Assembly (NCBI GenBank): GCA_963547065.1
Contig: CAUUQE010000001.1
Span: 1-57,725, forward strand
Origin: an uncultured Prevotella sp.
Lineage (GTDB): Bacteria; Bacteroidota; Bacteroidia; Bacteroidales; Bacteroidaceae
Direction of reading: 5' to 3'
Length of the DNA stretch: 57,725 bases
Shown here one piece after another: positions 237 through 19,003 of the stretch (position 1 is its first letter; each line of letters opens with the position of its first letter). A program made the position numbers and the translations under genes. The notes under the pieces were generated by a model, which saw only the letters and a program-made list of their open reading frames with translations, was not told the origin of the DNA and searched no databases.

Positions 237-1775
237 CTAATCTTTCTTTTTCTTCTTCTCCCAATATTTCTTGCCTTTTATTTTAAGTTGCTCGGTAAAG
301 GCTTTTGCACTCTGCATAGATTGAGCTTCATCAGCTGGTGAGGCGTAGGCATGTGTGAAACCTTTTATCTCGTCCCAGTGTCCGCGAGTGAAATCAGGAA
401 CCTCTACAGGCTTATTTCCATTATCCATTGAGATAGAACCAAGTTCGGCGAGGCAGCACCATTCTGCCAAGTCGTACACATCCATATCAAGAGGTAAACC
501 GTTTTGCAGACAATAAACTAATCTGCTATCCATAATGAAGTCCATCCCTCCATGGCCTCCAACTTCTTTTGCCTCCTCACCATATCTCTTTACCAACGGG
601 CTTGTATACTTCTCTACAAGAGCCTTGGTATCTTCAGCAGATAGATAATTATGACCAGAGAGATCGTCATTGGATGGTTTGACACCAGCCTGTACCATAT
701 TTGTAGACGATAGGGCATAACCTTCTATGGGATATTTATTGGCAAAACCTTTCGTCCCTGTAAGTTGATACATACGGTTGTAGGGTTGCGGTGTCATCAC
801 ATTATGGTGTATTTCGAGCACCTTACCCTTTTCAGTACGGATAAGTGTTGCTGTTTGATCGCCATTACGGAAGTCTTTGCACACCTCACCCGAGTATTTT
901 TCTACCAACGCTTTACCATTAAACGACTTTGTATCCATTGCTATGAGGGTACGCATTCGATCCCCACGGTGAATATTAAGTACTTGTGCAATAGGACCGA
1001 GACCATGAGTAGCATATACATCACCACGAAAATCTTTGTTATAATGCAGTCTCCAGCCTAATTTGTCATCTGTACTCTTTTTCCAATAGTGTGCCCAGTA
1101 AGGCGAGAGATCGTGACGGTAGGCACCCTGTACATATATAACATCACCGAAAAGTCCATGTTGCGCCATATAGAGCGAGTTGAGTTCGAAGAAGTCGTAG
1201 CAGCAGTTCTCGAGCATGATACAATGCAGGCGGGTTTGTTCGGAAAGATCAATGAGTGTCCAAATTTCGTTCAAATTCATTGCCGAAGGAACTTCAATAG
1301 CGGCGTGTTTTCCATGTGTCATAGCCTCTTTGGCTACAAGAAAATGATGTTCCCAGTCTGTAGCGATATATACAAGATCGATATCAGGACGCTTGCATAG
1401 TTCCTTGTAACCGTTTTCACCATAATATATATCAGCAGCAGGCATACTTGCCTTACGTAAAATATTCTGACATGCTTCTGCACGCTCTTTTTCGTAGTCG
1501 CATAAGGCCATCACTTGTATACCAGGAATATGCGTCCAGCGTTCTACAGCTGATGGTCCGCGCATACCTAATCCCACGAAAGCTACACGAACAACTTTGA
1601 GTTTTGGAGTAACGAGATTGACAGCAGACTGCTGTCCAGCCTTACGATTGGGGACTTCAGTAACAACAGTACCGTTCTCTATCTTATAAGACCAATTGAA
1701 TTGTGCTTCTATAGCCTGCGGAAACGACAACAAGACTATAAGTGACAATAAAGAAAAAAGATGTTTATGTTTCAT
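237..1775 (-). CDS. GH109 NAD+-dependent glycosidase (Gfo/Idh/MocA fold; alpha-N-acetylgalactosaminidase-like), secreted
   Basis: Signal peptide, Rossmann motif VGLGMRG, IEVP, MLENCCY, YATHGLGP and the GH109 signature GGHGGMD. Confidence 0.9.
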   Translation of the reverse strand: MKHKHLFSLLSLIVLLSFPQAIEAQFNWSYKIENGTVVTEVPNRKAGQQSAVNLVTPKLKVVRVAFVGLGMRGPSAVERWTHIPGIQVMALCDYEKERAEACQNILRKASMPAADIYYGENGYKELCKRPDIDLVYIATDWEHHFLVAKEAMTHGKHAAIEVPSAMNLNEIWTLIDLSEQTRLHCIMLENCCYDFFELNSLYMAQHGLFGDVIYVQGAYRHDLSPYWAHYWKKSTDDKLGWRLHYNKDFRGDVYATHGLGPIAQVLNIHRGDRMRTLIAMDTKSFNGKALVEKYSGEVCKDFRNGDQTATLIRTEKGKVLEIHHNVMTPQPYNRMYQLTGTKGFANKYPIEGYALSSTNMVQAGVKPSNDDLSGHNYLSAEDTKALVEKYTSPLVKRYGEEAKEVGGHGGMDFIMDSRLVYCLQNGLPLDMDVYDLAEWCCLAELGSISMDNGNKPVEVPDFTRGHWDEIKGFTHAYASPADEAQSMQSAKAFTEQLKIKGKKYWEKKKKKD

Positions 1776-1819
1776 ATAATTTAAGTTTATAAATCTTATT
1801 ACTATCTCTCAAAGACGAA

Positions 1820-1827
1820 CAAATATA
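1820..1827 (-). promoter_or_regulatory. Candidate Bacteroidota primary-sigma -7 element (TATATTTG) upstream of GH109
   Basis: Matches TAnnTTTG on the minus strand about 45 bp before the ATG at 1775. Confidence 0.4.
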
Positions 1828-1977
1828 ATAAGAAAAAGGCTCTTCGTTACTTAAAAGTGGGGTGATTTAATATTTTTTAAGTTGAAAAATTAGTAAGTCA
1901 GTGAGATGATGAAGTGAGAAACGTTTATTACAACTCTTATAGAGTAACTTGAGCTACATTAAGAAATTTCTTTTCTT

Positions 1978-3561
1978 TTACAGAGCTTCGAAATAAGGCA
2001 GCCGACCTATGGGAACGTCTATTATAATCTTACGACCCCCTTTATACACCTTTCCACGTTCATCTCTCCATCGTCCGCGTGGCAGAAGTACCGTACGACG
2101 TGTTGTATCACTTACCACGGGTGCCACAAGGTATTTATCTCCCAACATAAACTGATCCTTTATCAATGCATAACCTTGATGTGGAAAAGCATATTCCATA
2201 TGACGTACAATAGGCTCGCCCGTTATTGATGAACGCTTAGCGCAAGTGAGAATATAGCTACCTAACCGTACATGGAGGTTGGCCATATTACGAACAATAG
2301 CCAAATTCTCTTTATTAAGTATACGCCATGGGGCTACAGAAAATTGCATCATCGGCATAAGGGTGTGAACTTCGGTTGACCGAATAACAAGATGTTGGTC
2401 AAAACTATTGTCATCAATCCCGAGAAAGGTACTGAACGAGCCTCCACCAATCATATCAGGGCAGGTATAGATATAACCCAATAAACCTGCAGCTAATATA
2501 TCAGGCACAAGAAGGCGAATAGCATTCCATGAGTAGTCTTTATCACCCAGTCTCTGTACTAATTCTCTACATCCCATCTGCCAACCAGCACGGTACTCGT
2601 TGAAAGGAAACTCACAACCGATTTCTGCCCAAGCTCGAGTATGATCTACTGAAAGACTCCCTTGTTTGAATGACACAAGGTCGGAACGATCATAAAAATG
2701 GTTATCACCTCCATCAAACTTAAATCCGTCAATGCCGTATTTGTGCTGCATCTGATGTAACTGCTGTATAAAATAAGTCTTAGCCTCGGGGTTGGTAAAA
2801 TCGAAACAGGCACTTTGCCCATTCCACCATCGAATGATGGCAGGAGTTCCTGTAGCATCTTTTAGTAACAGATTTTTCTCCGCAAGCGAGCGATACTCAG
2901 GACTGTCTGCCGATACAAATGGGCATACCCATAACATCACCTTAAACCCCATGGTATGTAACTGCTCTACCATCTGCCGCGGAGTAGGAAATCTGTCGGG
3001 CTTAAATTCGAAATTTCCATAATATCGTTGCCAATTGTCATCTATCATGATAATGCCAGGTGGAAAGTCATGTTTCACAATATTTTCGGCGTATGTCAGT
3101 ACATCTTTCTGATTCTGGTTGTACATTAGTTCTATCCATGTGTTATATTGTGGCATGGTAAAGAATAAACTGTCAGGTAATAAGCCGTTGGGCTTAAAGT
3201 GTTTTTCCATTGCTGCAAGATATGCCTCTCGTAAGCTTCTTCCCCCGGCATTCGGCTCTATCTTCTCGTAAGCAGACTCTATGTGGATATTTCCGTTAGA
3301 AATACTGAATTTAAAAGGATGATCGCTCCAAATATAGCGTCCCATGCTCGACACAAGCAGAGGAGACACCTGATTATTATCGTTACGGTTCGCCAAATTA
3401 AATTCTGCAAGCGAAGCTATATAAGGCATGTTCGAACCTAGCGCTGTAGCTCCTCCCCACCAATATTCATCCTGCTGAATAGCTATATCTGTTACCTGCT
3501 GTGCCGTCAAGATATTATTCATAAAACAAGCTAAAAATAACAGTTTGTATTTATTAAACAT
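1978..3561 (-). CDS. GH31 glycosidase, probable alpha-galactosidase-type (MYORG/GH31_19-like)
   Basis: Signal peptide; motifs PQYNTWIEL, IMIDDNWQ, DGFKFDGGD (nucleophile Asp), PDMIGGG, MMQFSVAPW and DQFMLGDKYLVAPV. Confidence 0.85.
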   Translation of the reverse strand: MFNKYKLLFLACFMNNILTAQQVTDIAIQQDEYWWGGATALGSNMPYIASLAEFNLANRNDNNQVSPLLVSSMGRYIWSDHPFKFSISNGNIHIESAYEKIEPNAGGRSLREAYLAAMEKHFKPNGLLPDSLFFTMPQYNTWIELMYNQNQKDVLTYAENIVKHDFPPGIIMIDDNWQRYYGNFEFKPDRFPTPRQMVEQLHTMGFKVMLWVCPFVSADSPEYRSLAEKNLLLKDATGTPAIIRWWNGQSACFDFTNPEAKTYFIQQLHQMQHKYGIDGFKFDGGDNHFYDRSDLVSFKQGSLSVDHTRAWAEIGCEFPFNEYRAGWQMGCRELVQRLGDKDYSWNAIRLLVPDILAAGLLGYIYTCPDMIGGGSFSTFLGIDDNSFDQHLVIRSTEVHTLMPMMQFSVAPWRILNKENLAIVRNMANLHVRLGSYILTCAKRSSITGEPIVRHMEYAFPHQGYALIKDQFMLGDKYLVAPVVSDTTRRTVLLPRGRWRDERGKVYKGGRKIIIDVPIGRLPYFEAL

Positions 3562-3655
3562 ATTATAATATTGTTATTTTATTTTTTATTTTGAATCTGT
3601 AAACTCAAATAACCTCCACCATTAGTCTTTATACAAAGATATAAGTGATATATTA

Positions 3656-3691
3656 CCGGGAATATTTCACTTGCAGGTGGAACATTCCCGG
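3656..3691. terminator. Intergenic stem-loop between the lipoprotein and GH31 (terminator or mRNA-stability element)
   Basis: Inverted repeat CCGGGAATATTTCAC-TTGCAG-GTGGAACATTCCCGG. Confidence 0.55.
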
Positions 3692-3720
3692 ATTTCTAAT
3701 TTTCTTAATTAATTTACATC

Positions 3721-5493
3721 TTATTTCAGTTCTTCATAATTAAGTGTAAACTTTGCAGAACCTTTAGGCGTTACAGTCTTGTCTGCTCCAATATTGATAC
3801 CTTCCTTCAAGTCAACAATCACTTTATAACGACCTGCAGTTTTCGGAATAGTGAAACTGCCATTAGCACCTGCAGCATTAACATAGATGCTGTTGAAGTT
3901 AGTATTAGGCAACCGGACAGAAAATCCGGAATGTGGATAGGTAACATAGAAGGCGACATCTCCTCCCCATCCAAAATTATAAAATGTACCCTCATATGTC
4001 CCCTTAGCCGTCTTTACTAATGGAAGAACGTTATCAGCATCCCAAACCACGGGGGTTGATGTTTCTGTTGGTGCCCAACTCCATCCATCCATATAAATTG
4101 TGTTAGGATATGCACTAGTAGGAGTAGCGTAGAAAGTTCCGCTAAAAATATCCATGCGCACATAATATGTATCAGATACTGACTTTAATGTCCATGTTGG
4201 ATTCCCCCCTCCATCAAACAGGTCGGGATTAGCCGTGTATGCGGAGAGATCGAAACTCGAAGAGACTGTCTGTCCATGCGTTAACTTAACATTACCTTCA
4301 TAAACATAGCAAGCTCCACTTTTCAAGGTAAGATTACTACCATTAAACTGTACTGTATTTTTCACTTCACTGCCATTAACTACCACCTTTCCGTTACCAA
4401 AGAAGACAGATTTGCCTCCACCAGCGACTTCCACCGATGTACATATGTTATTTTGGAAATTTGCACGTATAGTAAACGGCCCACCTGCAGTCAAAGGGAA
4501 GCTCTTATTCTTATCATCTACAGTACTTTGAATAATCTTTTTACCATCCCAAAGAATGTATTCACCAGTACCACCACGTTTCAGACGGAATATGCCGGCG
4601 TTGCTCTTACCCCACATACCCGTTTCCGGATTATCTCCATCGGGTGCCGTCCATGTATAATATCTATCATTACCACTCTCAAAGCCTTTCATTATCATCT
4701 TTTGTTTCTCCGCTGTAATTTCTCCATCCTGCCAATGACCGGATATCGTTCCGAGAATATAATAGCAGGCGTTATTGGGTAATGGTGTCCAAAAGTGCTT
4801 CTCACCCGTAGTTAACTCAAACGTTATAGGATTAAAACTCACTGTGAATGAAGATTCGATATCACCGCCAATAACGATAGAGTCTTTCGCCATAGAGCTA
4901 ATATCCCCGTTGGTTGTACCCCAGTAAATCCCGTTTTTACTCGTAGTAGTAGAAATAATACCCTTTACTCCTGCAGGATAAACGTTCTCAGTAGGTGTTA
5001 CATATACATCACCATTTTTAATGAGATCTATTGCTTGCCCTGTACTCAATAGAAGATGCAAAGTTCCAAAGTTGGGTATGGAAACAGAGGGAAAGTCAAA
5101 AGTTTGTACGAGTTCACCACTACGGGTATTGTCCAATTTTACTTCTAGTTTCAGATTGTCTGCTTTTGCATTCTTGGGAAGGGGTACGAAGAGGTTATCA
5201 TTGATGTGGAATGATTGGCCAAGCAGCGACTGTTGCTTTACAACAAGAGTATCACCAGTACTATTGGTAAGCGTCAGTACATACTGTTCGAGATTTCTTT
5301 CATCAGTCATTTCACCTGAGACATTAATTTTATCTCCATAAGACAGATCACTCTGTGGGGAGACAATTATATCCATTGCCGGCTTCGGACCGTTTTTTTC
5401 ATTAGAAATAGTATTTTCGTTATCACTACAACTTATAGAAAGTAGTCCAGTAAGAACCATTATAAAAAAATATACTTTTTTCAACATAATCAT
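3721..5493 (-). CDS. PUL surface lipoprotein, SusE/F-like glycan-binding protein
   Basis: Lipobox LSISC-S; beta-rich Gly/Thr/Trp repeats (YYILGTISGHW, IYMDGWSW, GRYKVIVDL); lies downstream of susCD. Confidence 0.65.
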   Translation of the reverse strand: MIMLKKVYFFIMVLTGLLSISCSDNENTISNEKNGPKPAMDIIVSPQSDLSYGDKINVSGEMTDERNLEQYVLTLTNSTGDTLVVKQQSLLGQSFHINDNLFVPLPKNAKADNLKLEVKLDNTRSGELVQTFDFPSVSIPNFGTLHLLLSTGQAIDLIKNGDVYVTPTENVYPAGVKGIISTTTSKNGIYWGTTNGDISSMAKDSIVIGGDIESSFTVSFNPITFELTTGEKHFWTPLPNNACYYILGTISGHWQDGEITAEKQKMIMKGFESGNDRYYTWTAPDGDNPETGMWGKSNAGIFRLKRGGTGEYILWDGKKIIQSTVDDKNKSFPLTAGGPFTIRANFQNNICTSVEVAGGGKSVFFGNGKVVVNGSEVKNTVQFNGSNLTLKSGACYVYEGNVKLTHGQTVSSSFDLSAYTANPDLFDGGGNPTWTLKSVSDTYYVRMDIFSGTFYATPTSAYPNTIYMDGWSWAPTETSTPVVWDADNVLPLVKTAKGTYEGTFYNFGWGGDVAFYVTYPHSGFSVRLPNTNFNSIYVNAAGANGSFTIPKTAGRYKVIVDLKEGINIGADKTVTPKGSAKFTLNYEELK

Positions 5494-5499
5494 AATATT

Positions 5500-6657
5500 T
5501 TATGCTTTAATAAAAATTTTCATTTGATACATCCACCTCAATATAAAGAAAACAAGAATACCCTGTATCGTAATTATAAGTACAGGATAATAACCTTCTA
5601 TCCATTGTTTGAAACCATAGAAGAAGGTATTGATAACAGAGTCAAACACAATGTATTCACCGATAAAATAAGCCATTAGCGAATTCATACCATAAACCTT
5701 AAGCCATCCTAAACCACGAACCCAGCCTTTAATGTCAATACAAAAGTAGAATAATCCCATTAAAAGGAAACAGATTCCACTTGCAAATAGCGTCATAGAA
5801 CTAGACCATATGTGTTTAATAATGGGTATCCATGGACTCATTACAAGAGCAATAATAATTAACACCGCACCTGTTATCATTAACTTAAGAAACTTATTGG
5901 ATGCAGAAAAGTTACTTCGTAGGATATATCCTGCCATATGACCGGAGAATACCGTTGCAACAAAATTCAACGAACTCATAATCCAAGTATAATGATAGGT
6001 AGTATCCCACGTCCAGTTATCACCGTTCCAAACCACACCATCACGGAAACGTCCAAGTACAACCTTGTCTATCTGCTCACATATATTCGCATTGATAGTA
6101 AAGTCCATATTTCCCCATAGCGCAAAAATGGTAATATAAGTAACAAACAGAAGAGCTACGACTATAATTTGTGTACGCAGTGAAGTGAAAACATAAAGAA
6201 AGGTTACAACAACATATCCCACAGCGATACTCTGTAATGTGTTGCAGAATAGATGCAATTGTTTTAGGTCAAAAGCAAGCAGATTGCCTTGTATAACAAC
6301 TCCCAATATCCAGAGAATAACAAACCGTTTGAGGATACGAAAGTAGAAACTTCGATCTACTTTCTCCTTACCGATTTTGTATTTAGACATCGTGAACGGT
6401 ATCGTAACACCTGACATAAACATAAATAACGGCATGATAATATCCCAAAAGCAGAATCCTTCCCACGGAACATGGGTAACCTGTCCTATTACCCATGCAC
6501 CGATTGTACTTTCCGCAGGCTTCCGTATCAATAACCATTCGTAAATAATAGGTTGAATGAGCACTAGGCAAGCTAAATCAAGGCCTCGTAAGATGTCGAG
6601 CGATAACAGACGCTTAGGTATTTCTGCATTGGTTGTTGTATCTACAGAGGTCTTCAT
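5500..6657 (-). CDS. HGSNAT-like (DUF5009/NagX-type) polytopic membrane acetyltransferase
   Basis: Motifs RLLSLDILRG, HVPWEGFCFWDIIMPLFMFMSG (His equivalent to the HGSNAT HxxWxGxxxxD motif) and PIIKHIWSSS; many hydrophobic helices. Confidence 0.8.
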   Translation of the reverse strand: MKTSVDTTTNAEIPKRLLSLDILRGLDLACLVLIQPIIYEWLLIRKPAESTIGAWVIGQVTHVPWEGFCFWDIIMPLFMFMSGVTIPFTMSKYKIGKEKVDRSFYFRILKRFVILWILGVVIQGNLLAFDLKQLHLFCNTLQSIAVGYVVVTFLYVFTSLRTQIIVVALLFVTYITIFALWGNMDFTINANICEQIDKVVLGRFRDGVVWNGDNWTWDTTYHYTWIMSSLNFVATVFSGHMAGYILRSNFSASNKFLKLMITGAVLIIIALVMSPWIPIIKHIWSSSMTLFASGICFLLMGLFYFCIDIKGWVRGLGWLKVYGMNSLMAYFIGEYIVFDSVINTFFYGFKQWIEGYYPVLIITIQGILVFFILRWMYQMKIFIKA

Positions 6658-6661
6658 AGAC

Positions 6662-8101
6662 TTACTTCTTTATGAACCTGATACTTGAGGAACTCTTTTT
6701 CAAATTGCCTGTAGCGCTTATCTCAATATTTATACCGAGATTATTGTAACCAGTAGCACTCTCCCAAATCTTATCATTAGCTAATCTGACGGCATATTCG
6801 GGGCGGGATGCAATACTCTTTTCCGGATCTGGCATAAATAAGAAAAATTGATAACTTCCTGCAGGAATATTTGTAGGCAATGCTATTGTTCGATTCACGG
6901 ACGCATTATGTAAAGGTTTCCACGTACGCGGATCGTCAGGTAATGTCACTTCATACTCTGTTTTATCCTTGGTAGAACGTAATATCAACTTCACATTGCG
7001 AGGATTATACATGGACGCATAGCCAACATTTTGCAATTCAAGTTTTATTACAAGATCGCTGCCGGGTATATGCTTTATTGAGTATTCACCACGAGAAAGC
7101 ACGATACGATACCCTAAATTCTTCTTAATGTCTGGGAGGTAACCGTCTGTTTCCCATTTTTTTAGCACATTCCGATCATAAGCGTCATTAAGAAACGACC
7201 AATGTAATAAACGCATCTCGTCCACAGCATCTTTCCCTGCAGAAGGAGTTGCTGAAGAATTAGGCAAACAAGTCTCACCACCGATGGGGAGATAAAGCCC
7301 CTCCTCAGCCAAATAAGTCTTATCTTTTTCCACATCAATATAAGTTCCCATGTTTGTTTTATCAGACATAAAGGCATCATTGTGATGTGCAATACGCGCA
7401 ATGGGCTCGTTGCTAAATGCCTGCTTTGCCGTTATAGCTGTCGAAGAGCCAATAAAGTCTTGTTTGTATTTCGGTGTCCGAACTTGTATGCAACGATCTT
7501 TAGGTAACACTTCAAGCCATTTGTTGAGTAATTCCTTATAAGAAGCCGTGTTATTCAGATGATTAGAAGAGTAATACCATTCACCCCATGCCCCTATAAA
7601 ACCGGCTTGTACACAGGCGATAACATCCTTATTGACAGTAAATACAGGTTTCATTTGATCCAAATGCCGCTTAATAACATTCATCGAAGCATCGGGTTCT
7701 GTCTGTGCAGACGTGTAGGCAAAGCGTAAAATAGCTTTCATTCCATTTTTACGAATAATCCCCATATCTGTATTCAGTTTGCTAACGATCCCTGAGGGTA
7801 GATCCTTATCACGATAATCTTTAAAGTAATAAAGTATCTGTACCAGCGTTTTACCTTCGTTATGCAAACGTTGAATATAACCATCATCTACAGGATTAGT
7901 GGCATTGCTCTCAATCTCAGTATAGAAACCACGTTCTGGATTAACAAATATTTCGTCTGTTGGAGCATATTTTATTGTTTTCATCTCAACTGCAGGTGGT
8001 TGAGGTTCCGGCACATCAGGACCTTGTGAATTATTCTTATCACTGCAAGAGTACAGGAATAATATCACTACCGGCAATATCCAATAATTCTTTTTTCTCA
8101 T
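6662..8101 (-). CDS. DUF4874/DUF4832 lipoprotein, putative TIM-barrel glycoside hydrolase
   Basis: Lipobox FLYSC-S and Pro-rich linker; motifs NPERGFY, ILRFAY, QAGFIGAWGEW, HHNDAF, IGGET and LGYRI. Confidence 0.75.
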   Translation of the reverse strand: MRKKNYWILPVVILFLYSCSDKNNSQGPDVPEPQPPAVEMKTIKYAPTDEIFVNPERGFYTEIESNATNPVDDGYIQRLHNEGKTLVQILYYFKDYRDKDLPSGIVSKLNTDMGIIRKNGMKAILRFAYTSAQTEPDASMNVIKRHLDQMKPVFTVNKDVIACVQAGFIGAWGEWYYSSNHLNNTASYKELLNKWLEVLPKDRCIQVRTPKYKQDFIGSSTAITAKQAFSNEPIARIAHHNDAFMSDKTNMGTYIDVEKDKTYLAEEGLYLPIGGETCLPNSSATPSAGKDAVDEMRLLHWSFLNDAYDRNVLKKWETDGYLPDIKKNLGYRIVLSRGEYSIKHIPGSDLVIKLELQNVGYASMYNPRNVKLILRSTKDKTEYEVTLPDDPRTWKPLHNASVNRTIALPTNIPAGSYQFFLFMPDPEKSIASRPEYAVRLANDKIWESATGYNNLGINIEISATGNLKKSSSSIRFIKK

Positions 8102-8144
8102 AACTGTTATTTCTTTTATACATTATATAATCATTAATTTTCAA

Positions 8145-9689
8145 TTACTTATACCCCTCATTTTGTTTCACTTGTCCTTTTCCATCAAGAATGACAGATA
8201 ACGGCAACGGATATAATTCCTTGTATTCCTCGGCATAGGGTGAATTATTGATAGCTTTAACCAACGGGATAAGTTTATGATAACGTATCATATCGGCACG
8301 ATATTGCCCATTTTCGCACCAGAATTCATGCCAGCGTTCAGTCAAAACGGCATTTAACACTTTTTCGGGAGTATTGTAATCGGAAGTGCTCAGATTTCCT
8401 AAACCTGCTCGATTACGAATAACATTTATGTATCTGATAGCTTCTTGAAGGTCTGCACTCGAAGCTCCTGTCTTTTGTGAGAGAGCCTCGGCTAAAGAAA
8501 GATACACATCAGCATAACGATAAAGAATAAGATCTATATCTGAGTGACCGCCGGAACCTTTCACATTAGGATCATAGCCCATCTTCAAAGCAATGGGTCC
8601 AACTGCTAATGGCGATTGCGGTGTATCCTTGTCTATAACTTTACCCGACGAGTTGGTATAAGAAGGTAGCAATCTCGTACGCCGTACATCGCCTGTTTCA
8701 AACGAATTGTAGAAATACCATGTGCTGGTAATAGTACCCCAACCGCCGCTCATGCCGTCTTGTGCAAAGTCTGTGGGCAATACCATCATGTGCCATTGGT
8801 TGATGCTCGGTCCGTCATAAGCACAAGGCAAAGCAAAAATGATTTCTTTATTTGCCATACCTTGTCCGCCACGTTCGAACATTTTTACATAATCTTTTTG
8901 CAATTGATAGCCATACTGTGGAGTCGTTAACTCACGAGCTAAAGTTTCTACCTTATTAAAATAGCCCTTATCTATCGGCGTCTCATGCAGATACAGGCGG
9001 ATAAGCAACATCTTAGCAAAGCCTCTGCTGAAACGTCCGTATTCTTCTTTGCCAGGCATAGGCAAATGTTTTCCTGCAAAGAGTAAATCGTCTTCGATAA
9101 ACTTTGTCATCTCAGTACGCGAAAGTCTCGGTAAAGGAGTTTCTTTCAATGGATTCTTCAATACTTCCAAAGGAGCAACAACCAACGGACCGTACATATC
9201 ATAGAGTGTATATGAAAGGAAAGCACGTGCACAACGAACCTCTGCCTCATAGAACTGTTTTTTATTTTCGTCGAGCGGGCTGTTGGCAATATCGTCCAAT
9301 ACTAGCGTACAACGGCTCACCTTATTGGCGTATCCACCACTGTATTTTGTGTTACGCGTAAAATAAAACCATGTAACTTCATCGCTTTCCGGATAGAAAT
9401 TAAGTTCTGTAGCCATTTTCTGTGCTCCGAATGTTCCCGCAAGAATACCGGTGGTACAATCATTCAAAAACATTACTCCATTCTCTGACGGGCTGTATAT
9501 TCCATCCCACCAGTTTCCTCGTAGAGGATAATAGCACGACATAACCAGTGCGGCAATATCTTCTTCTGTTTTAGGAAAAGTGGTAGGGTTGATTTCCGAA
9601 TAATCTACGGGCGTAAGATCGCAACTGTTCATTGCTCCCAAACAAGTAATACCCAACAATACCGAATATATAAATTTAAATCTTTTCAT
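8145..9689 (-). CDS. SusD/RagB family lipoprotein
   Basis: Lipobox MNSC-D; motifs AEVRCARA, LYRYADVYLSLAEA, ERWHEFWCE and QNEGY. The ATG at 9689 is preferred over the GTG at 9698. Confidence 0.9.
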   Translation of the reverse strand: MKRFKFIYSVLLGITCLGAMNSCDLTPVDYSEINPTTFPKTEEDIAALVMSCYYPLRGNWWDGIYSPSENGVMFLNDCTTGILAGTFGAQKMATELNFYPESDEVTWFYFTRNTKYSGGYANKVSRCTLVLDDIANSPLDENKKQFYEAEVRCARAFLSYTLYDMYGPLVVAPLEVLKNPLKETPLPRLSRTEMTKFIEDDLLFAGKHLPMPGKEEYGRFSRGFAKMLLIRLYLHETPIDKGYFNKVETLARELTTPQYGYQLQKDYVKMFERGGQGMANKEIIFALPCAYDGPSINQWHMMVLPTDFAQDGMSGGWGTITSTWYFYNSFETGDVRRTRLLPSYTNSSGKVIDKDTPQSPLAVGPIALKMGYDPNVKGSGGHSDIDLILYRYADVYLSLAEALSQKTGASSADLQEAIRYINVIRNRAGLGNLSTSDYNTPEKVLNAVLTERWHEFWCENGQYRADMIRYHKLIPLVKAINNSPYAEEYKELYPLPLSVILDGKGQVKQNEGYK

Positions 9690-9711
9690 AATTTCCACAC
9701 TATAAATAATA

Positions 9712-12700
9712 TTAGAATGTAACGTTGATTCCCAAGCTGTAAGTACGGGCGTTGGGGTAAGCAGCTGTATAATAATCGGTCTCAGGATCTAACCCCTTGT
9801 AGGGAGTAATACAGAACAAGTTGTTTGCACTGAAAGAAATTCGCACTTTCGATATAACTTTAGTACGCTCAAGCCACGTTTTGGGCAGGCTCCATCCCAA
9901 TGTAATATTAGACAAGCGGATAAACCATGCATTTTGATAATACCAATCGCCGGAGGTATAGTTAGTATTCCATCCATTAAATGAACATGGGTATTCGGTA
10001 GAAGGATTATCCCACGTCCAGCGTTTCTGAATAAGACGTAAAGCATTGTAGCCGAAACGGGCTAAATCGCCTCCGCCAAGACCATACGCCATCTGTGTAG
10101 GATCTTGCATCTTACGGTCAAACATGCCGTTAAACTGGACACTCAAATCGAAATCTTTGTAGCGGAACGTATTGATAAGACCAGCTAGCCAGCCCGGATC
10201 TTGCGAACCGATAAGCACATTATCGGCATCATCGATGATACCATCAGGCTCTCCTGTGAGGATAAAACGACCGTTTTCGTCTACTATCGGTTGATTATTT
10301 GCATCACGTTTATAGCCATTGATATCTTTGATAACCACTTCGCCCGGACGTAAGTTTGGTTGTGCAGCAGGCACTTTCTCGCCTATCTGAAGGATATGGT
10401 CGGCCAATCGTGAGTAGATAGGGCGTATAGGATCATCTACTTTCTCGTAAACACCGGGCTTCCAGTCGGGCGTACGTTCTTTCCATCGATCTTTATATTT
10501 GGTAAAAGTGAAGTCGGTGGTCCACTTAAAGTCTTTCGTATCGATATTCCTCGTATTGATGGTTACCTCAATACCCGTGCTTTGTGTCTTGCCTACATTT
10601 GCCATAACTTTAGAAACGTCGTGGTAAAAATTAAGAGGATTGTAATTCAGCAAATCAGAAACTATCTTATGATAAAATTCTACACTTGCCAAGATGCGGT
10701 TATTTAAAAATCCCATATCCAAGCCTATGTTCCACTCGGTGGTCGTTTCCCATTTCAAATCAGGATTCTCCAACTTAGAAGGGAATACGCCGATAATCTG
10801 AGATTTGTCTGCACGATTATAGGCAGGAGCTGCAGAATAGCTGGCAAACGCATTGGTACCGATATCTGAATTACCCGTCTGTCCCCAGCTAAGACGCAAT
10901 TTCAGCATGCTCATCCAGTCATATTTCTTCATAAAATCCTCCTCGGTAACCGTCCATCCTAATGCTACAGACGGGAAATATCCCCACTTATGATTTTTGG
11001 CAAAGACACTTGCACCGTCTGAACGCAATGTAGCTGTCAGATAGTAGCGGTCTTTCAGAATATAATTGGTACGGAAGAAATAAGACAACATCTTATTTTT
11101 GGAATATCCCGAGCCTACAATTTTTGTTCCTGTGCCTGCTCCCATATTATTATAAAGAAAGCCATCAGTAAGAAAGTTATTGTTACCGAGATTAGAACCT
11201 TCGTGCTCAAACTGTTCATAAGAAGTTCCTACCAACAAATTTACCTTATGCACATCATTGAAAGTGCGATTATAATTAGCCGTTGCCTCAAGCAGATACT
11301 GATTATTGTCAGTAGTATAAATATCGCCATTTCCCTGCTGTGCTTTCCCCCAAAGAGTGGTTTTAGGCTCATAAGTCTTACGGCTGATATTAGCACGATC
11401 AATGCCTGCATTCACTCTGAGAGTGAGACCATCAATAGGATTAGCTTCTAAATAGATATTGCCCAGCAGACGATCGGTACGTCCTTTGTCTATATCATTT
11501 AGCAGAGAGTATGGGTTGGGCTGTGTTCCCAAAAGCGGATTAACGGGATATTCTCCTGTCTTCGGATCATAGGCCTTGATATGAGGACCCATCTGAACCG
11601 CGGCACGGATAATACCAGACTTTTCATATTGCGCCTCGCCAAGCTGAGTATTATTATTGTCTATACGAGTAAGCGTTATATTGACGCCTGCTTTGAAAAT
11701 ATCAAGAAACTTTTGGTCGATATTACTCTTCAAGGTATAGCGAGTCATTCCCGAGTTCCTGATAATGCCTTCGTTATCATAATAGTTGAGCGACACCATA
11801 TATTGTGTTTCCTTGGAACCGCCTCTAATACTCAAGTTATGTTCCTGTATGTTGCCGTTACGCGTGATCAGTCCTATCCAGTCGGTTCCTGCACCTGCGG
11901 CAGCAATCTCTGCATCGGTATAAGGACGGGTGTATGCCAGTCCGTTCTTAGGCGAAGCAAGTGCCTCGGCCAGTGTACGTTTGCCCCACGGCCCAACTTC
12001 ATTTTCCCATATCCAGTACTCCCATGTAGATTTGTTTTTCTCTACCATCCATTCTTTCAACGAAAGCATATCGTAAGTATCGGAATATTTCTGGAACGAA
12101 TAGTTGTAAGAATAATCTACTTGAGCCTTTCCTTCTTTACCCCGTTTGGTAGTGACGATTACCACTCCATTAGCAGCACGTGCTCCATAGATGGCTGTGG
12201 CACTGGCGTCTTTGAGCACCTCTATGCTTTCTATGTCGTTCGGATTTAGAAAATTGAGCACTCCCTGAGTACCTGGATTCATACGATCGTTTACACCTTT
12301 AACTTGGTCTAATTTGGCAATGGGGAAACCGTCTACAATATATAACGGATCGTTATTGGCATTTACGGAGCCGGCACCACGCACAAGAATATCAAGGCCG
12401 CCGCCCGGCTGTGCCGAATTCTGTCTCACATACAGTCCTGCAGCCTTGCCGGCTAAAGCATGGGCAGCCGAAGCCACACCTGCTAAAGCTACATCACTCC
12501 CTTTCACAGAAGAAATGGCACCTGTCAGATCGCGCTTCTTCATCTTCCCATAACCTACCACAACCACTTCGTCTAACGCCTTGCTGTCTTCACGTAGCAG
12601 AATTTCCATCGTACCTTGAGTCGCTTTCACCTCTTGCGTAGTAAAGCCAAGGAAAGATACCGTGAGCATGCTGTTAGGGGTAACATCTAAACTGAACCTA

Positions 12701-13158
12701 CCTTCAAGGTCAGTAACCGTTCCGTTGCTGGTTCCTTTTTCTTTCACACTCGCACCGATGACAGGTTCTCCATCATCATCGCGTACGACGCCTTTCACAA
12801 CTCTGTGCTGTCCCTTAGACTGCTGTGTTCTGACTTCTTTTTGAGGATTGTCGGACACTACTATCGATTTATCCGACACAATGGTGTACTGTAGGCCACG
12901 TGCAGGCAGTACTGAGTTGAGCACCGTAGATACAGCAGCATTGGTATACGAAACTGTTACATCGCGCCTATCGCCGACAACCGCGTTACGATACGAGAAG
13001 CGATAAGTAGTCTGCCTCTCTATAGCACTAAACATTTGCTTAAGCGAAACGTTCTTCAGATTAACGGTTACCGTCTGTCCCTGAGCATAGGCGCCCAAAC
13101 AAACCACACACAGTAACAGCATCAATACGCAATACTTAATTTCATGGCGTATATCCAT
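9712..13158 (-). CDS. SusC/RagA TonB-dependent transporter with N-terminal STN signalling domain
   Basis: STN-like N-terminus (LKQMFSAIERQTTYRFSY), carboxypeptidase-like domain, DIESIEVLKDASATAIYGARAANGV and C-terminal Phe. Confidence 0.95.
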   Translation of the reverse strand: MDIRHEIKYCVLMLLLCVVCLGAYAQGQTVTVNLKNVSLKQMFSAIERQTTYRFSYRNAVVGDRRDVTVSYTNAAVSTVLNSVLPARGLQYTIVSDKSIVVSDNPQKEVRTQQSKGQHRVVKGVVRDDDGEPVIGASVKEKGTSNGTVTDLEGRFSLDVTPNSMLTVSFLGFTTQEVKATQGTMEILLREDSKALDEVVVVGYGKMKKRDLTGAISSVKGSDVALAGVASAAHALAGKAAGLYVRQNSAQPGGGLDILVRGAGSVNANNDPLYIVDGFPIAKLDQVKGVNDRMNPGTQGVLNFLNPNDIESIEVLKDASATAIYGARAANGVVIVTTKRGKEGKAQVDYSYNYSFQKYSDTYDMLSLKEWMVEKNKSTWEYWIWENEVGPWGKRTLAEALASPKNGLAYTRPYTDAEIAAAGAGTDWIGLITRNGNIQEHNLSIRGGSKETQYMVSLNYYDNEGIIRNSGMTRYTLKSNIDQKFLDIFKAGVNITLTRIDNNNTQLGEAQYEKSGIIRAAVQMGPHIKAYDPKTGEYPVNPLLGTQPNPYSLLNDIDKGRTDRLLGNIYLEANPIDGLTLRVNAGIDRANISRKTYEPKTTLWGKAQQGNGDIYTTDNNQYLLEATANYNRTFNDVHKVNLLVGTSYEQFEHEGSNLGNNNFLTDGFLYNNMGAGTGTKIVGSGYSKNKMLSYFFRTNYILKDRYYLTATLRSDGASVFAKNHKWGYFPSVALGWTVTEEDFMKKYDWMSMLKLRLSWGQTGNSDIGTNAFASYSAAPAYNRADKSQIIGVFPSKLENPDLKWETTTEWNIGLDMGFLNNRILASVEFYHKIVSDLLNYNPLNFYHDVSKVMANVGKTQSTGIEVTINTRNIDTKDFKWTTDFTFTKYKDRWKERTPDWKPGVYEKVDDPIRPIYSRLADHILQIGEKVPAAQPNLRPGEVVIKDINGYKRDANNQPIVDENGRFILTGEPDGIIDDADNVLIGSQDPGWLAGLINTFRYKDFDLSVQFNGMFDRKMQDPTQMAYGLGGGDLARFGYNALRLIQKRWTWDNPSTEYPCSFNGWNTNYTSGDWYYQNAWFIRLSNITLGWSLPKTWLERTKVISKVRISFSANNLFCITPYKGLDPETDYYTAAYPNARTYSLGINVTF

Positions 13159-13621
13159 ATTGTAATCATTTATTTAAAGTTAAACATTCTATTTCCGTTG
13201 TCACGGCATATTAGATCTGTAAGGGTTAGACAAATTCGCAAAGGTATTGTACTGATAAACACTTATTTTTTAACAAAAACAAACATTTGGACAGCAGCAA
13301 AACGTTACATATGCATAAGTCTTCCGTTCTTATACCTATTGAATAACGGGTATACATCCACCTTGTATCGACAATACAGCATTGGTGTAAGGAGCATACA
13401 CCATTACTCTATGAAATACAGTCGCAATTTTCATGATACGCGATGTACAGACTTTCCGTTATAGCACTCTCATAGGGATGCTTTTCAAACAAGAATATAA
13501 TGTATCTCCTTGACTTAGGTAATAGCGATGAGGCTTTTCATAGGCGTATAAGGAGAGATTATCACGTATTTATTTTCAGGCAAGAATCTTTTTAAAAACA
13601 TGCCTTTCATTGATATGATGC

Positions 13622-13651
13622 GGGCAGCACGCAATATATAGCATGCTGCCC
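13622..13651 (-). terminator. Probable terminator hairpin downstream of the second susD
   Basis: GGGCAGCACGC-AATATATA-GCATGCTGCCC, about 40 bp past the susD stop. Confidence 0.55.
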
Positions 13652-13688
13652 ACACATAAGAAACGTCTGTATAAAGACTATAGAATGT

Positions 13689-15275
13689 TTATTTATAGCG
13701 CCCTGTGTCCCACCATACGCGCACGTTCATGCCATCCCCTTTGCCATTGTTGAGCGTTGTAGCTTTGGCGTTAGGGTTCTCTCGCAGTTCCGTATCGGTA
13801 TAGCGCAGCTTCTTTACGAACTCTCCGTTGGCCGCGTTGATAGCCGAATTGAGGCTTACAGCGACAGGCGTAAGCGCTGGATAGCCCGTGCGACGGAATT
13901 CGCTCCATGCTTCTACGCCATCGGGATATAGTGCGAGCCACTTTTGAGTGATGATCTGTCGCAGATGTCCTTCCTGTGTAGATTGCGAACTCCATGCTAC
14001 TGAGCCCGTCGTCTTGTAAGTATTATCATCGACCGTACTATAAAGTGTGCTGGCTACATCGGCACGTTCGGCATCGAACGAGGCCTGTATGCCTTTCAAA
14101 TACTCATCTTCTGCCGTGCCTGCACCTGTCCAGCCGCGCAGAGAGGCCTCTGCTTTAAGGAAGCAAACCTCGGCATATTCCATCACTTTCTGCCGTTTGG
14201 CAACGTTGAAAGAAGTAGTTTTGTCGTCTTTACTGTTCCATGCCGGCAAGGTTTGCAAGCCCCATACGTACGATTTGTCGGGATATGTAGCAATGTCTTC
14301 CGATGCCAATCCGTTCGGAATGCCTGCAAACTTAGGAGCTGCGGCGGTAGATGTTTCCGTGTGGCCGAACCAAAGCGCCGTGCGTGGATCTTGCACCGAG
14401 CTCGTTTGTTTCAGCATATTTTCCATTGTTTTGCTCATACAGAACTCGCCCCAACCCGATATCTGGAACAGTGGCCAGCCGTTGGCACCTGTTCCGGAGA
14501 TATAAACTCCTGCATTATCTTGGTTGCTGCTCATCAGTCCGCCGGTAGCTGCAAGCGCGGCTTCGCCCTCTTTCTTGGCCGTTTCCGGATCGATGTAAGC
14601 CAATCGCAACGCATAACGAAGGCGCAAAGAGTTGGCCAATTTGATCCATTTACCGAGGTCTCCGTCGAAAATAAGGTCTTGGTTAGCCTTGTATGTCACC
14701 ATCGAAGCATTCGTAAGATTGGCATTCAAGGAGTCTACTGCTTCTGTCAGTTCCTTGAATATCGCCGTATAGATGCTCTGCTGACTATCATATTTAGCCT
14801 GACTGCTGCCCTCTGCTCCCTCCGTATAGGGAATGTCGCCGAAAATATCCGTAGTTTGAGCCGTGCAACGGGCGGTGAATATTCGCATAGTTTGCAGGAT
14901 ATTGCCATATTCGGGCCGTGCTTCAGTAATTTCTTTCGCCTTCTTAAACTGTTTCAGAACGCCCACATAATAAGAGTTCCAGAAACCGTCGGTCACCCAA
15001 TTGCTTTTATACGAGTAGCTGTCTGATGAGAAATAAGCGGCCGAATTGGCGAAATACTGTGCATAAAGATTAGTGTGGAGATTATCTCCCACCTGATATT
15101 CCCAAGAAGCAATGCGTGCTCCCTGCTCTTGGATATAGGGCATCATGTAATCAGGATTGCCCGACGTGATACCCATAGGATCGCTGTTCATCGAGTCGAA
15201 AGAATCCGTACAGCTCACGCCAACTCCGCATACGGCAAGAGCAAGCCCCATTGTTTTAATGATATTGCATTTCAT
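13689..15275 (-). CDS. SusD-like lipoprotein (SusD-like_2 type)
   Basis: Start reassigned to the ATG at 15275 (MKCNIIKTMGLALAVCGVGVSC, lipobox); motifs TDIFGDIPY, ANSLRLRYALR, IITQKWLA, EAWSEFRRTGYP and VWWD. Confidence 0.9.
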   Translation of the reverse strand: MKCNIIKTMGLALAVCGVGVSCTDSFDSMNSDPMGITSGNPDYMMPYIQEQGARIASWEYQVGDNLHTNLYAQYFANSAAYFSSDSYSYKSNWVTDGFWNSYYVGVLKQFKKAKEITEARPEYGNILQTMRIFTARCTAQTTDIFGDIPYTEGAEGSSQAKYDSQQSIYTAIFKELTEAVDSLNANLTNASMVTYKANQDLIFDGDLGKWIKLANSLRLRYALRLAYIDPETAKKEGEAALAATGGLMSSNQDNAGVYISGTGANGWPLFQISGWGEFCMSKTMENMLKQTSSVQDPRTALWFGHTETSTAAAPKFAGIPNGLASEDIATYPDKSYVWGLQTLPAWNSKDDKTTSFNVAKRQKVMEYAEVCFLKAEASLRGWTGAGTAEDEYLKGIQASFDAERADVASTLYSTVDDNTYKTTGSVAWSSQSTQEGHLRQIITQKWLALYPDGVEAWSEFRRTGYPALTPVAVSLNSAINAANGEFVKKLRYTDTELRENPNAKATTLNNGKGDGMNVRVWWDTGRYK

Positions 15276-15288
15276 GATCGTGCTTGTT

Positions 15289-18200: not shown

Positions 18201-18462
18201 CCTACAGCGAGAACCGTCCGTCCAGATCGGTGACGCCCCCGCTTTTCGTCCCTTTCGCATAGACACTGGCTCCGACGACAGCCTCGCCGTTTTCGTCGAG
18301 CACGATTCCCGTCACCCTCTTCTGCGCCTGCTGCTGCCGTTCGGCGCTGCCCTGCAGAGAATTTGCTGCCACCAAAGGAACGCTTGTTCCGAGCAGACCG
18401 GCAAGAAGGAGCATAGCAAGTCTCCTTCTGCCCAAGTTTGTTTGTCGTTTAAGGTTTTTCAT
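15289..18462 (-). pseudogene. SusC/RagA TonB-dependent transporter interrupted by a single in-frame TAG at 18204-18202
   Basis: ORFs 18202-18462 and 15289-18177 share a frame and read ...DLDGRFSL*ADDGATLVVSYLGY..., a continuous carboxypeptidase-like domain. Downstream SusC motifs are intact (VVTALGIKRE, VLKGANAAALYGSRA, C-terminal F). Confidence 0.85.
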
Positions 18463-18630
18463 TTTGTTTTAAAAGTTTAATAGATAGTAAAAAAAATAGT
18501 ATAGTATGCTGATTTCTGTTGCCGTGGCTTCCTCTGCGAGCCATAGTCTCGGTGGGCGCCACCCCGCGCCTTGCAGGTGCAGATATGCCCAGTGAGCCGC
18601 GCCGGCGCACGTTCTGAAGCCGCTCGGCGA

Positions 18631-18705
18631 GCCGTCTAAACCTGTCCCGCATGCCGTCTGAATCGCTCGGCAGGTCGCCTAAACCTGTCTGGCGGGCCGT
18701 CTGAA
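18631..18705. repeat. Degenerate 21-22 bp-period array with GCCGTCT(G/A)AA cores
   Basis: Cores at 18631 (GCCGTCTAAA), 18653 (GCCGTCTGAA), 18674 (GTCGCCTAAA) and 18696 (GCCGTCTGAA). Confidence 0.65.
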
Positions 18706-18822
18706 TCACCTCACGGACATGCTAAAAACTCGAGCGGCATACTGAACCATTCGGGCGGGCATACTGAAAGTTCAGAGCCTCTTTACCTGCCCGCTTTCTC
18801 TGCATCAAGTGCAGGCCCGCAG

Positions 18823-18897
18823 AATCTGTCGACTAATTTTCAAAATCTGTCGACTAATTTTCAAAATCTGTCGACTAAATTTTTAGAATCTGTCGAC
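18823..18897. repeat. Tandem repeat: 4 copies of AATCTGTCGAC with period 21/21/22 bp
   Basis: Cores start at 18823, 18844, 18865 and 18887; full unit AATCTGTCGACTAATTTTCAA. Confidence 0.9.
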
Positions 18898-18958
18898 ACA
18901 TTTCGTAAGAAGTGACGTCATCCCCTGCGGAGGCGGGCGTAATGTTTCAAAGAAGCGG

Positions 18959-18992
18959 GCGTCGCCCCGCGCTCTGGACGGCGCTGCGACGC
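18959..18992 (-). terminator. GC-rich hairpin just downstream of the phosphoesterase
   Basis: GCGTCGC...GCGACGC inverted repeat ending about 12 bp from the stop codon. Confidence 0.35.
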
Positions 18993-19003
18993 TTTCGGGG
19001 AGC

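Follow-up and report, generated by a model that had tools for sequence, protein, structure and literature searches.

A Prevotella polysaccharide utilisation locus that couples a DUF4832 surface protein to an HGSNAT-like acetyltransferase and may serve galactosamine-containing polymers

In lysosomal heparan sulfate breakdown, the human polytopic membrane enzyme HGSNAT works with the glycosidase NAGLU (PDB 8VKJ, 8JKV): acetyl crosses the membrane to a free-amine hexosamine, after which an N-acetyl-specific exo-glycosidase can act. Bacterial NagX proteins (Shewanella SO_3504 family, NF046061) occur in chitin and N-acetylglucosamine operons and are thought to act on free glucosamine (GlcN); NagX mutants of five bacteria fail on glucosamine, and the available text of that report proposes periplasmic N-acetylation with cytoplasmic acetyl-CoA (PMC9007349). 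Flavonifractor plautii handles alpha-linked termini of galactosamine (GalN) and N-acetylgalactosamine (GalNAc) by a blood-group A route consisting of a GalNAc deacetylase and a glycoside hydrolase (GH) family 36 galactosaminidase (9AWT, 9AYU). Here we describe a seven-gene locus in a 57,725-bp stretch of DNA from an uncultured Prevotella sp. (contig CAUUQE010000001.1 of assembly GCA_963547065.1), in which an acetyltransferase related to HGSNAT and NagX, hereafter AcT, lies beside a surface lipoprotein of the DUF4874 and DUF4832 families and upstream of two galacto-specific exo-enzymes. The stretch, hereafter the window, is the entire contig C1 of a metagenome-assembled genome (MAG) of 2.52 Mb in 256 contigs, estimated to be 86% complete. 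Among named organisms, the best matches to the housekeeping protein LpxB of this genome come from Prevotella species, at 71-77% identity.

At about even confidence, we favour a polysaccharide utilisation locus (PUL) whose target is a microbial galactosamine polymer, alpha-linked and in part de-N-acetylated, with re-acetylation in the periplasm. Candidate substrates are bacterial Pel (alpha-1,4 GalNAc/GalN), fungal galactosaminogalactan (GAG; alpha-1,4 Gal/GalNAc/GalN) or a similar exopolysaccharide. Four observations point to such a polymer: the dispersal of Pel aggregates by a DUF4832 protein, the AgaS, PfkB and aldolase genes that neighbour DUF4832 genes, a GH36-like partner of these genes in other genomes, and the mutual exclusivity of that partner and AcT. 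If the proposal holds, AcT shares the logic of HGSNAT and reverses that of F. plautii, which deacetylates and then cuts GalN, whereas the locus described here would acetylate and then cut GalNAc.

All seven genes are open reading frames (ORFs) on the minus strand, separated in transcription order by 13, 43, 4, 6, 159 and 202 bp. They are listed below in that order, preceded by the non-coding region upstream.

13159..13688, no strand assigned: presumed promoter or regulatory region upstream of the SusC-like gene; 530 bp non-coding, with no minus-strand ORF of 100 aa or more
9712..13158, minus strand: SusC/RagA-type TonB-dependent outer-membrane transporter (1148 aa; TIGR04056, TIGR04057)
8145..9698, minus strand: SusD-like outer-membrane lipoprotein, partner of the SusC-like transporter (517 aa; PF07980, PF14322)
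6662..8101, minus strand: DUF4874+DUF4832 surface lipoprotein, predicted endo-acting glycoside hydrolase (479 aa; PF16173, PF16116)
5500..6657, minus strand: HGSNAT/NagX-like (DUF5009-type) polytopic inner-membrane acetyltransferase, AcT (385 aa; NF046061)
3721..5493, minus strand: all-beta multi-domain surface lipoprotein, probably a SusE/F-type glycan-binding protein (590 aa; lipobox, structural model)
1978..3561, minus strand: periplasmic GH31 alpha-galactosidase of the MYORG-like bacterial group (527 aa; PF01055, PF21365, PDB 8J53)
237..1775, minus strand: periplasmic GH109 NAD-dependent N-acetylgalactosaminidase (512 aa; PF21252, PF01408)

Judged from sequence, the set is a Sus-like PUL, having adjacent susC and susD genes, co-oriented glycan enzymes and surface lipoproteins. 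The contig ends 236 bp past the GH109 gene, so the locus is cut there and may continue. Signal predictions make the DUF4832 protein, the 590-aa protein and SusD lipoproteins with acidic residues after the cysteine, and give GH31 and GH109 signal peptidase I (SPI) signals, a split that matches the usual surface and periplasm division of a Sus-type relay. A first-pass annotation of the window, made from the letters and their translations, had recognised seven co-oriented genes at exactly these outer limits, 237..13158. Its gene identities all hold, and to them we add an assignment for the 590-aa lipoprotein, which it had left unnamed. Its remarks that AcT is tightly coupled to its neighbours by gaps of 4-6 bp, that AcT keeps an HxxWxGxxxxD motif and that the GH31 enzyme is of the alpha-galactosidase type with a KFD nucleophile motif were likewise confirmed by the results that follow.

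The DUF4832 protein matches both DUF4874 (PF16173, E 5.5e-49) and DUF4832 (PF16116, E 4.3e-62) and bears the lipobox LFLYSC19-SDKNN. Its AlphaFold model (mean predicted local distance difference test, pLDDT, 89) consists of a (beta/alpha)8 barrel at residues 54-330 followed by a C-terminal beta-sandwich at 333-461. A sequence comparison with the PDB returned no solved relative, and Foldseek together with a wide structure search placed the fold among generic barrels of clan GH-A and beta-amylase; GH5_4, at Z 14.4, and beta-amylase, at Z 14.1, came nearest, with 10-13% identity. GH114, GH135 and GH166 enzymes were absent among the matches listed, an absence that carries no weight either way. The best structural matches include GH5_4, GH14, GH113 and GH39, with endoglycoceramidase II (2OSW) at Z 12.2, and GH42 is found in 16% of the members of one of the 30 nearest ESM Atlas clusters. 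The NPERG stretch at 54-58, E174, D242 and E276 are invariant in 16 homologues, making E174 and E276 the candidate catalytic pair. We predict that the protein is an endo-acting hydrolase of an alpha-linked GalNAc/GalN(/Gal) polymer.

This prediction leans on SIR_1591, a protein of the Streptococcus intermedius pel operon with a transmembrane helix, a TIM barrel and a DUF4832 domain, which, according to the available text of its report (PMC12345266, mBio 2025), is as effective as the PelA hydrolase domain in dispersing aggregates that depend on Pel. DUF4832 genes are described more widely as accessories of Gram-positive (streptococcal, clostridial) pel operons (PMC7112168, available text). SIR_1591 and the protein described here are likened by Pfam family, TIM barrel plus C-terminal beta domain, and size alone; they differ in that SIR_1591 is a membrane-anchored trimming enzyme of a biosynthetic operon, whereas the present protein is a surface lipoprotein of a catabolic SusC/SusD locus. 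The known hydrolases of these polymers, PelA(h), Sph3 and Ega3, belong to other families (GH166, GH135 and GH114, respectively), and PelA, Sph3 and PslG sit in exopolysaccharide-synthesis contexts. Some Bacteroidota DUF4832 genes share with the pel operons an exopolysaccharide-synthesis setting: in two loci (L118, L120; individual loci are given by handles of this form) the gene lies by a Wzz/GNVR tyrosine-kinase gene and a patatin-Omp85 protein, and in a third (L117) by glycosyltransferase family 4 and tetratricopeptide-repeat genes. By analogy with the pel operons, this suggests that the DUF4832 enzymes of these three loci trim a self-made polymer. Among further variants of the family are a 2734-aa giant with Listeria-Bacteroides (Flg_new) repeats (L124:1672-9876), three tandem copies (L115), and enzymes with C-terminal sorting domains of the type IX secretion system (T9SS; L114, L117, L121). 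The Tannerella forsythia member has been detected in a vesicle proteome (PMC10682907, in the text available), and a DUF4832 gene is also indicated in Bacteroides thetaiotaomicron.

AcT lies 4 bp and 6 bp from its two neighbours. Its only library match is the NagX model NF046061, "transmembrane glucosamine N-acetyltransferase" (E 3.7e-36), at 125 bits against an equivalog cut-off of 480 bits; no Pfam family was matched at E 0.001 or better, and its homologues are annotated as DUF5009 domain-containing proteins. The H-x-x-W-x-G-x4-D motif is present as H62-V-P-W65-E-G67-F-C-F-W-D72, and in 18 homologues H62, W65, G67 and D72 are invariant together with D21 and R24, the DxxR of the first helix. 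A profile of these 18 homologues matches human HGSNAT (8VKJ, E 4.7e-16) with the invariant H62 aligned to the acetyl-carrying His297. The names of the catalytic His and DxxR motifs follow two earlier reports (PMC9007349, PMC12423673), the second of which, a 2025 survey, states that experiments have confirmed a function for no DUF5009 protein. We predict from these features that AcT carries acetyl from cytoplasmic acetyl-CoA to free-amine sugars in the periplasm.

AcT resembles HGSNAT in its polytopic membrane architecture and in the conserved His, but it is reduced to the catalytic transmembrane core (385 aa) and its compartment is the bacterial periplasm. Its likely acceptor is GalN rather than GlcN, and its partner would be the NAD-dependent GH109 rather than GH89. 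It shares family and size with NagX; unlike NagX, it is flanked by the predicted DUF4832 hydrolase and a probable glycan-binding lipoprotein, inside a PUL whose exo-enzymes are galacto-specific. A second and very distant HGSNAT-like paralogue, 22% identical to AcT, is encoded elsewhere in the same genome (contig C172, 1951-2946).

The GH31 enzyme (PF01055, E 7e-34; PF21365) matches PDB 8J53 at E 1.9e-207 over residues 25-526 and 8J50 at E 7e-155, compared with E 7e-65 for human MYORG (7QQF) and 1e-26 or worse for ordinary alpha-glucosidases and xylosidases. Its nucleophile motif reads GFKFDGGD, and in the 8J53 alignment both GFKFDG and the acid/base motif CPDMIGGG are identical to those of the solved "GH31 alpha-galactosidase", making it a close homologue of the 8J50-8J53 and MYORG group. 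A member of this group from Bacteroides salyersiae (GH31_dist EIY61740.1) cleaves p-nitrophenyl-alpha-galactoside, according to the available text of its report (PMC6442616). On this sequence evidence the enzyme is of the alpha-galactosidase type; that it might instead be an alpha-glucosidase or xylosidase, which the first-pass annotation had named as the outcome that would overturn its view, was examined through the PDB comparison and was not borne out. We take the enzyme to belong to CAZy GH31 subfamily 19, and bacterial GH31 alpha-galactosidases reportedly cut alpha-1,4-galactobiose and globotriose, in work said to have appeared in FEBS J in 2023.

GH109 is identified by the GH109_C domain (PF21252, E 4e-33) and PF01408 (E 1.3e-14) and by PDB matches to an Akkermansia protein (6T2B, E 9.7e-78) and to the alpha-N-acetylgalactosaminidase 2IXA (E 1.4e-59). 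It carries a GLGMRG Rossmann motif and an EVGGHGGMD loop, GGHGG being, as Teze et al. are said to have found in 2020, the catalytic loop of the family. The protein is 80-82% identical in three Prevotella MAG loci.

The transport and binding components are those of a Sus-type system. The SusC-like protein matches TIGR04056 (E 6.3e-271), the TIGR04057 signature, and the Plug and CarbopepD_reg_2 domains, and has an N-terminal STN-like extension scoring 24.5 bits, below the Pfam cut-off of 28.4; its orthologues are 66-81% identical across nine related loci. SusD (PF07980, E 2.7e-26; PF14322), with the lipobox ...MNSC, is 64-76% identical in related loci. The 590-aa protein has no Pfam or NCBIfam match. 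It carries the lipobox SISC22-SDNEN, and its model (pLDDT 77) is all-beta and multi-domain, with the starch-binding lipoprotein SusF (4FE9) as top Foldseek match (E 7.6e-6), at a TM score of only 0.16-0.19. Its nearest ESM Atlas clusters hold DUF5016, DUF5121 and DUF5125 proteins of Bacteroidota, and it is kept in nine loci at 51-62% identity, always after AcT, a position unusual for the SusE/F type, which would be expected after SusD. With moderate confidence, drawn in part from the model, we regard it as probably a SusE/F-type surface glycan-binding protein.

To follow the gene set through the phylum, the seven proteins were mapped onto 80 loci with 10-kb flanks, anchored on AcT and taken from species-representative genomes. 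DUF4832 is present in 17 of the 80 and is the gene directly upstream of AcT in 16 of those 17; GH31 is present in 14, all of them within the same 17. GH109 (48-82% identity) was found in 16 of the 80 loci and the 590-aa protein in nine. The complete gene order is kept in Segatella oulorum, Segatella salivae, Prevotella illustrans and several Prevotella MAGs; Bacteroides nordii and one Bacteroides MAG have all the genes with GH31 and GH109 relocated; five rumen or horse-gut MAGs (L016, L017, L025, L042, L058) have the same enzymes in other orders; and T. forsythia ATCC 43037 retains SusC-SusD-DUF4832-AcT alone. Cultured carriers of the locus include S. salivae DSM 15606, S. oulorum ATCC 43324 and B. 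nordii JCM 12987.

In an AcT tree of 84 rows, the 21 rows linked to DUF4832 require at least seven label changes and include a pair (L119, L127) only 26-28% identical to the AcT of the window, so the linkage recurs in several lineages and is not one inherited accident. Of 401 genomes sampled across the phylum, just 26 (our own included) carry DUF4832 homologues, yet these lie within 10 kb of AcT in those 17 of 80 loci; rarity across the phylum together with frequency near AcT puts the conservation far above chance. The conserved core is DUF4832 plus AcT, often joined by GH31, by GH109 and by the binding protein. The first-pass annotation had asked whether the gene set is conserved, and the co-occurrence does extend to other genomes and outlasts rearrangement of gene order. 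Its pairing of AcT with GH109 is partly upheld: GH109 is a frequent partner, yet it is not obligatory (8 of 20 loci with both AcT and DUF4832), and the DUF4832 and AcT core had not been singled out.

Some AcT homologues and DUF4832 loci show other arrangements. In eight rumen-type loci (L019, L021, L029, L032, L034, L046, L047, L054) an AcT homologue directly follows a UhpC/GlpT-like organophosphate transporter of the major facilitator superfamily (MFS), with a conserved 194-aa protein next in seven (not L029); these loci have no tie to DUF4832. In the horse-gut Bacteroidales MAG locus L058 (49-8612), the stretch just upstream of DUF4832-AcT encodes four paralogues in tandem, each of about 520 aa, and a protein of 760 aa; apart from a twin-arginine (TAT) signal on one of the paralogues, none of these has a Pfam domain match. 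An alkaline phosphatase sits between AcT and GH31 in this locus.

A complementary survey was anchored on DUF4832. The profile matched in the 26 genomes just mentioned, which fall in 16 of 180 genera, and about 17 kb around each of 20 matches were clustered and annotated. SusC/SusD pairs accompany seven of these 20. In two unrelated genomes (L114, L121) the DUF4832 gene lies by genes for a DeoR regulator, an AgaS-family SIS isomerase/deaminase (TIGR02815, E 2e-104), an EamA transporter, PfkB and a class-II ketose-bisphosphate aldolase. A set of the DeoR/AgaS/PfkB/aldolase type forms the galactosamine/N-acetylgalactosamine-to-tagatose pathway of the Escherichia coli aga operon. An APH-family kinase, GalE, an aldose 1-epimerase and a GlmM-like mutase occur in L116, L119 and L127, with PIG-L deacetylase genes in L116 and L127, and L058 has a GatZ/KbaZ aldolase subunit and a kinase near DUF4832. 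These neighbours are consistent in sharing a galacto- and amino-sugar theme.

Beside DUF4832 in seven of the 20 anchored loci is a GH36-like enzyme of 690-784 aa. Among solved structures it is nearest to 8X1B, an "alpha-galactosidase" (E 3e-61), and to 9AWT/9AYU, the "A type blood alpha-D-galactosamine galactosaminidase" (E 8e-60), compared with only about 1e-5 for classical GH36 alpha-galactosidases. Across all 37 DUF4832 loci, AcT is present in 20 and the GH36-like gene in seven, with both in none and neither in 10; among the 20 loci chosen without regard to AcT the corresponding counts are three, seven, none and 10. That the two genes are never found together is the pattern expected if they are alternative remedies for GalN termini. 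A homologue of the GH36 galactosaminidase-like enzyme was not found in our own genome.

These distributions bear on what AcT does. For the same class of substrate, it could instead N-acetylate free GalN (or GlcN) for uptake and catabolism, or be an inner-membrane permease, as has been claimed for TfMurT, the putative N-acetylmuramic acid transporter of T. forsythia and a distant NagX relative; the genetic evidence on NagX (PMC9007349, which also notes TfMurT) relates to glucosamine in its free form and not to the ends of oligosaccharides. The locus encodes no other inner-membrane transporter, and GH109 is missing from 12 of the 20 AcT+DUF4832 loci, both as this explanation would have it. However, the catalytic His and DxxR show no variation, and a pure permease would have no use for them; none of the enzymes encoded in the Bacteroidales loci is known to liberate GalN, and the GH36 galactosaminidase-like gene shares no locus with AcT; and AcT is adjacent to GH109 both in eight loci with DUF4832 and in nine further loci without DUF4832 or the rest of the set, where a GH109-like gene directly follows it. 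We judge a role confined to free amino sugars or transport to be rather improbable.

The structure and the varied settings of the DUF4832 family, in turn, would fit a locus that is an evolutionary mosaic, with DUF4832 a beta-glycanase and the target a complex glycan capped by alpha-Gal and alpha-GalNAc, such as the capsule of a bacterium, a teichoic-acid-like polymer or a glycan of plants or algae. The GH5_4, GH14, GH113 and GH39 matches and the GH42-bearing cluster noted above can be read in this way, as can the diversity of DUF4832 contexts, which take in phosphatases (L058, L017), GH28 (L124) and the 2734-aa repeat protein. Against a mosaic, the galactosamine/tagatose neighbours, the GH36 partner, the coupling to AcT and the Pel-operon member of the family all point one way, and we hold a mosaic to be improbable.

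Control of the locus raises a further alternative. Genes for an extracytoplasmic function (ECF) sigma factor and/or a FecR anti-sigma factor flank the locus in five relatives (L002, L012, L013, L017, L042), unlike in the window, where no regulator is adjacent; the orthologue of the relatives' sigma/anti-sigma pair was not found in our own, 86% complete genome, which has only paralogues of 22-33% identity. A scan for sigma-70 promoters and terminators gave 47 promoter-like and nine terminator-like sites, against 39.5 and 9.3 in shuffled sequence, no better than chance. An esterase-like gene that trails GH109 in L005 had no match in our genome when used as query.

Sigma/anti-sigma control of this kind would suit a locus that harvests host glycans (globo-series or P-type glycosphingolipids, Forssman antigen, blood-group A or Tn-type mucin), in which DUF4832 would be an endo-beta-glycanase or endoglycoceramidase-like enzyme, GH109 would take alpha- or beta-GalNAc, GH31 the Gal-alpha-1,4 of Gb3-type cores, and AcT would be an accessory. 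The locus is carried by Bacteroidales that live with hosts, in the mouth, gut or rumen, the relatives of GH31 are alpha-galactosidases, the GH109 match 2IXA is an alpha-N-acetylgalactosaminidase, and the DUF4832 fold resembles clan GH-A, endoglycoceramidase II included. GH109 itself was discovered on the blood-group A antigen. Such host glycans, however, are without free-amine hexosamine and leave no role for the most tightly conserved pair, DUF4832 and AcT. The locus also lacks the beta-galactosidase, fucosidase, sialidase and GH20 that are all usual in host-glycan PULs; DUF4832 keeps the same galacto/amino-sugar neighbours across further orders and classes of the phylum, where some members bear T9SS tails and some belong to exopolysaccharide-synthesis loci; and GalN is indicated both by the GH36 alpha-galactosaminidase-like partner and by the tie to pel operons. 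The first-pass annotation had offered blood-group or globo-series host glycans as an alternative to its own galactosamine-polymer (GAG- or Pel-like) reading; the alternative is weakened, and we retain it as an unlikely rival. The galactosamine reading itself was sustained in part, strengthened by the Pel link of DUF4832, the amino-sugar neighbours and the GH36 exclusivity and diminished by the limited share of loci with GH109.

For the galactosamine-polymer proposal, the sequences show the gene identities, the motifs, the predicted localisation signals, the conservation of the set and its distribution relative to the GH36-like gene; the substrate, the endo-activity of DUF4832, GalN as the acceptor and the succession of events are inferred. 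Under this proposal, SusD and the SusF-like protein of 590 aa would hold the polymer at the surface while the DUF4874/DUF4832 lipoprotein cuts it to oligosaccharides, which would enter the periplasm through SusC. AcT would then load acetyl from cytoplasmic acetyl-CoA on H62 and pass it to free-amine GalN residues, converting them to GalNAc. Terminal GalNAc would be removed by the periplasmic GH109 and terminal alpha-1,4-linked Gal by GH31, and the monosaccharides would feed into catabolic routes for amino sugars and galactose that other parts of the genome encode. GAG fits all three exo-activities and Pel all but the galactosidase.

Several observations weigh against this proposal. The DUF4832 fold is closest to clan GH-A beta-glycanases and beta-amylase, and alpha-galactosaminidase activity is not implied by the structure; the sole experimental anchor for the family is the dispersal of aggregates by a distant Gram-positive member. 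Pel as described is without galactose, and GH31 would therefore be idle on pure Pel. GH109 occurs within about 10 kb of AcT in only the eight of 20 AcT+DUF4832 loci already given and is missing from the Segatella and T. forsythia versions, while T. forsythia, L043 and L061 lack GH31. About 50 of the 80 AcT homologues (41-49% identity) stand in unrelated contexts, among them an MFS transporter, GH20, GH95, GH123, sialidase and housekeeping genes. Neither AcT nor the GH36-like gene is present in 10 of the 20 DUF4832-anchored loci, and because 17 of the 20 AcT-positive loci were found via AcT, the exclusivity rests mainly on the 20 independent loci. No GatZ/KbaZ gene was found in our own genome (86% complete). 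Finally, the ECF-sigma/anti-sigma control present in relatives is typical of host O-glycan PULs in Bacteroides thetaiotaomicron.

Elsewhere in the genome, contig C128 (L134, 1-7013) encodes a PIG-L deacetylase, an APH-family kinase and a CBM9_2-like protein, with genes for an AT3 acyltransferase, an EamA transporter and a truncated TonB receptor alongside. This kinase shares 55% identity with its counterpart next to DUF4832 in L058, and PIG-L, APH and CBM9_2 genes also flank the DUF4832 locus L127. It is possible that this set is the cytoplasmic amino-sugar branch serving the seven-gene locus.

Within the window, the region directly upstream (13689-26728) holds a second and unrelated glycan locus comprising SusC/SusD, a metallophosphoesterase, a GlcNAc 2-epimerase-family protein, DUF4434, an MFS sugar transporter, a carbohydrate esterase family 2 (CE2) protein and a ROK regulator. 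Its GC content is 0.489, with 2-kb windows reaching 0.57 at 18-20 kb, above the genome 95th percentile for 5-kb windows (0.476), so it is this block and not the seven-gene locus that looks compositionally foreign. Horizontal transfer of the seven-gene locus was considered and rejected, its GC content of 0.411 being close to the genome mean of 0.421 (5-kb windows 0.363-0.476). A third PUL at 48890-57133 encodes an ECF sigma factor, a FecR anti-sigma factor, an STN-SusC, a SusD and a metallophosphoesterase, and a stretch of GC 0.31 precedes it at 48-50 kb.

There are precedents for PULs, for GH109, for GH31 enzymes of this group and for the NagX idea. In the literature within reach, which left out subscription journals, we found no paper on a PUL for Pel or galactosaminogalactan or on a PUL with an HGSNAT-like gene, and none joining GH109, GH31, an acetyltransferase and SusD. 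The gene set is real and conserved, and the combination of a predicted DUF4832 hydrolase with an HGSNAT-like AcT in a Sus-like locus, with a proposed "acetylate, then hydrolyse" logic for GalN and a GH36 alternative elsewhere, is probably undescribed. The bolder claim, to which we give somewhat less than even credence, is that this is the first PUL dedicated to Pel/GAG-type polymers, with periplasmic re-N-acetylation, which is not known from any other bacterial system of glycan degradation, licensing GH109, that "acetylate then cut" and the GH36 route of cutting the amine directly are interchangeable, and that DUF4832 is a new GH family of endo-alpha-galactosaminidases.

Pel and GAG are adhesive, partly deacetylated matrix polymers that shield biofilms of Pseudomonas, streptococci, Bacillus and Aspergillus, and their hydrolases PelA, Sph3 and Ega3 have been explored as anti-biofilm agents. 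If the proposal is true, oral, gut and rumen commensals of the Bacteroidales would feed on the biofilm matrix of their neighbours, and the locus would supply new enzyme candidates against Pel/GAG biofilms. Two large families of unknown function, DUF5009 and DUF4874/DUF4832, would gain a function, and the GH31 alpha-galactosidases would gain a natural context. The locus would also be a bacterial counterpart of the reaction that HGSNAT carries out when human lysosomes degrade heparan sulfate, the step that is defective in Sanfilippo syndrome type C.

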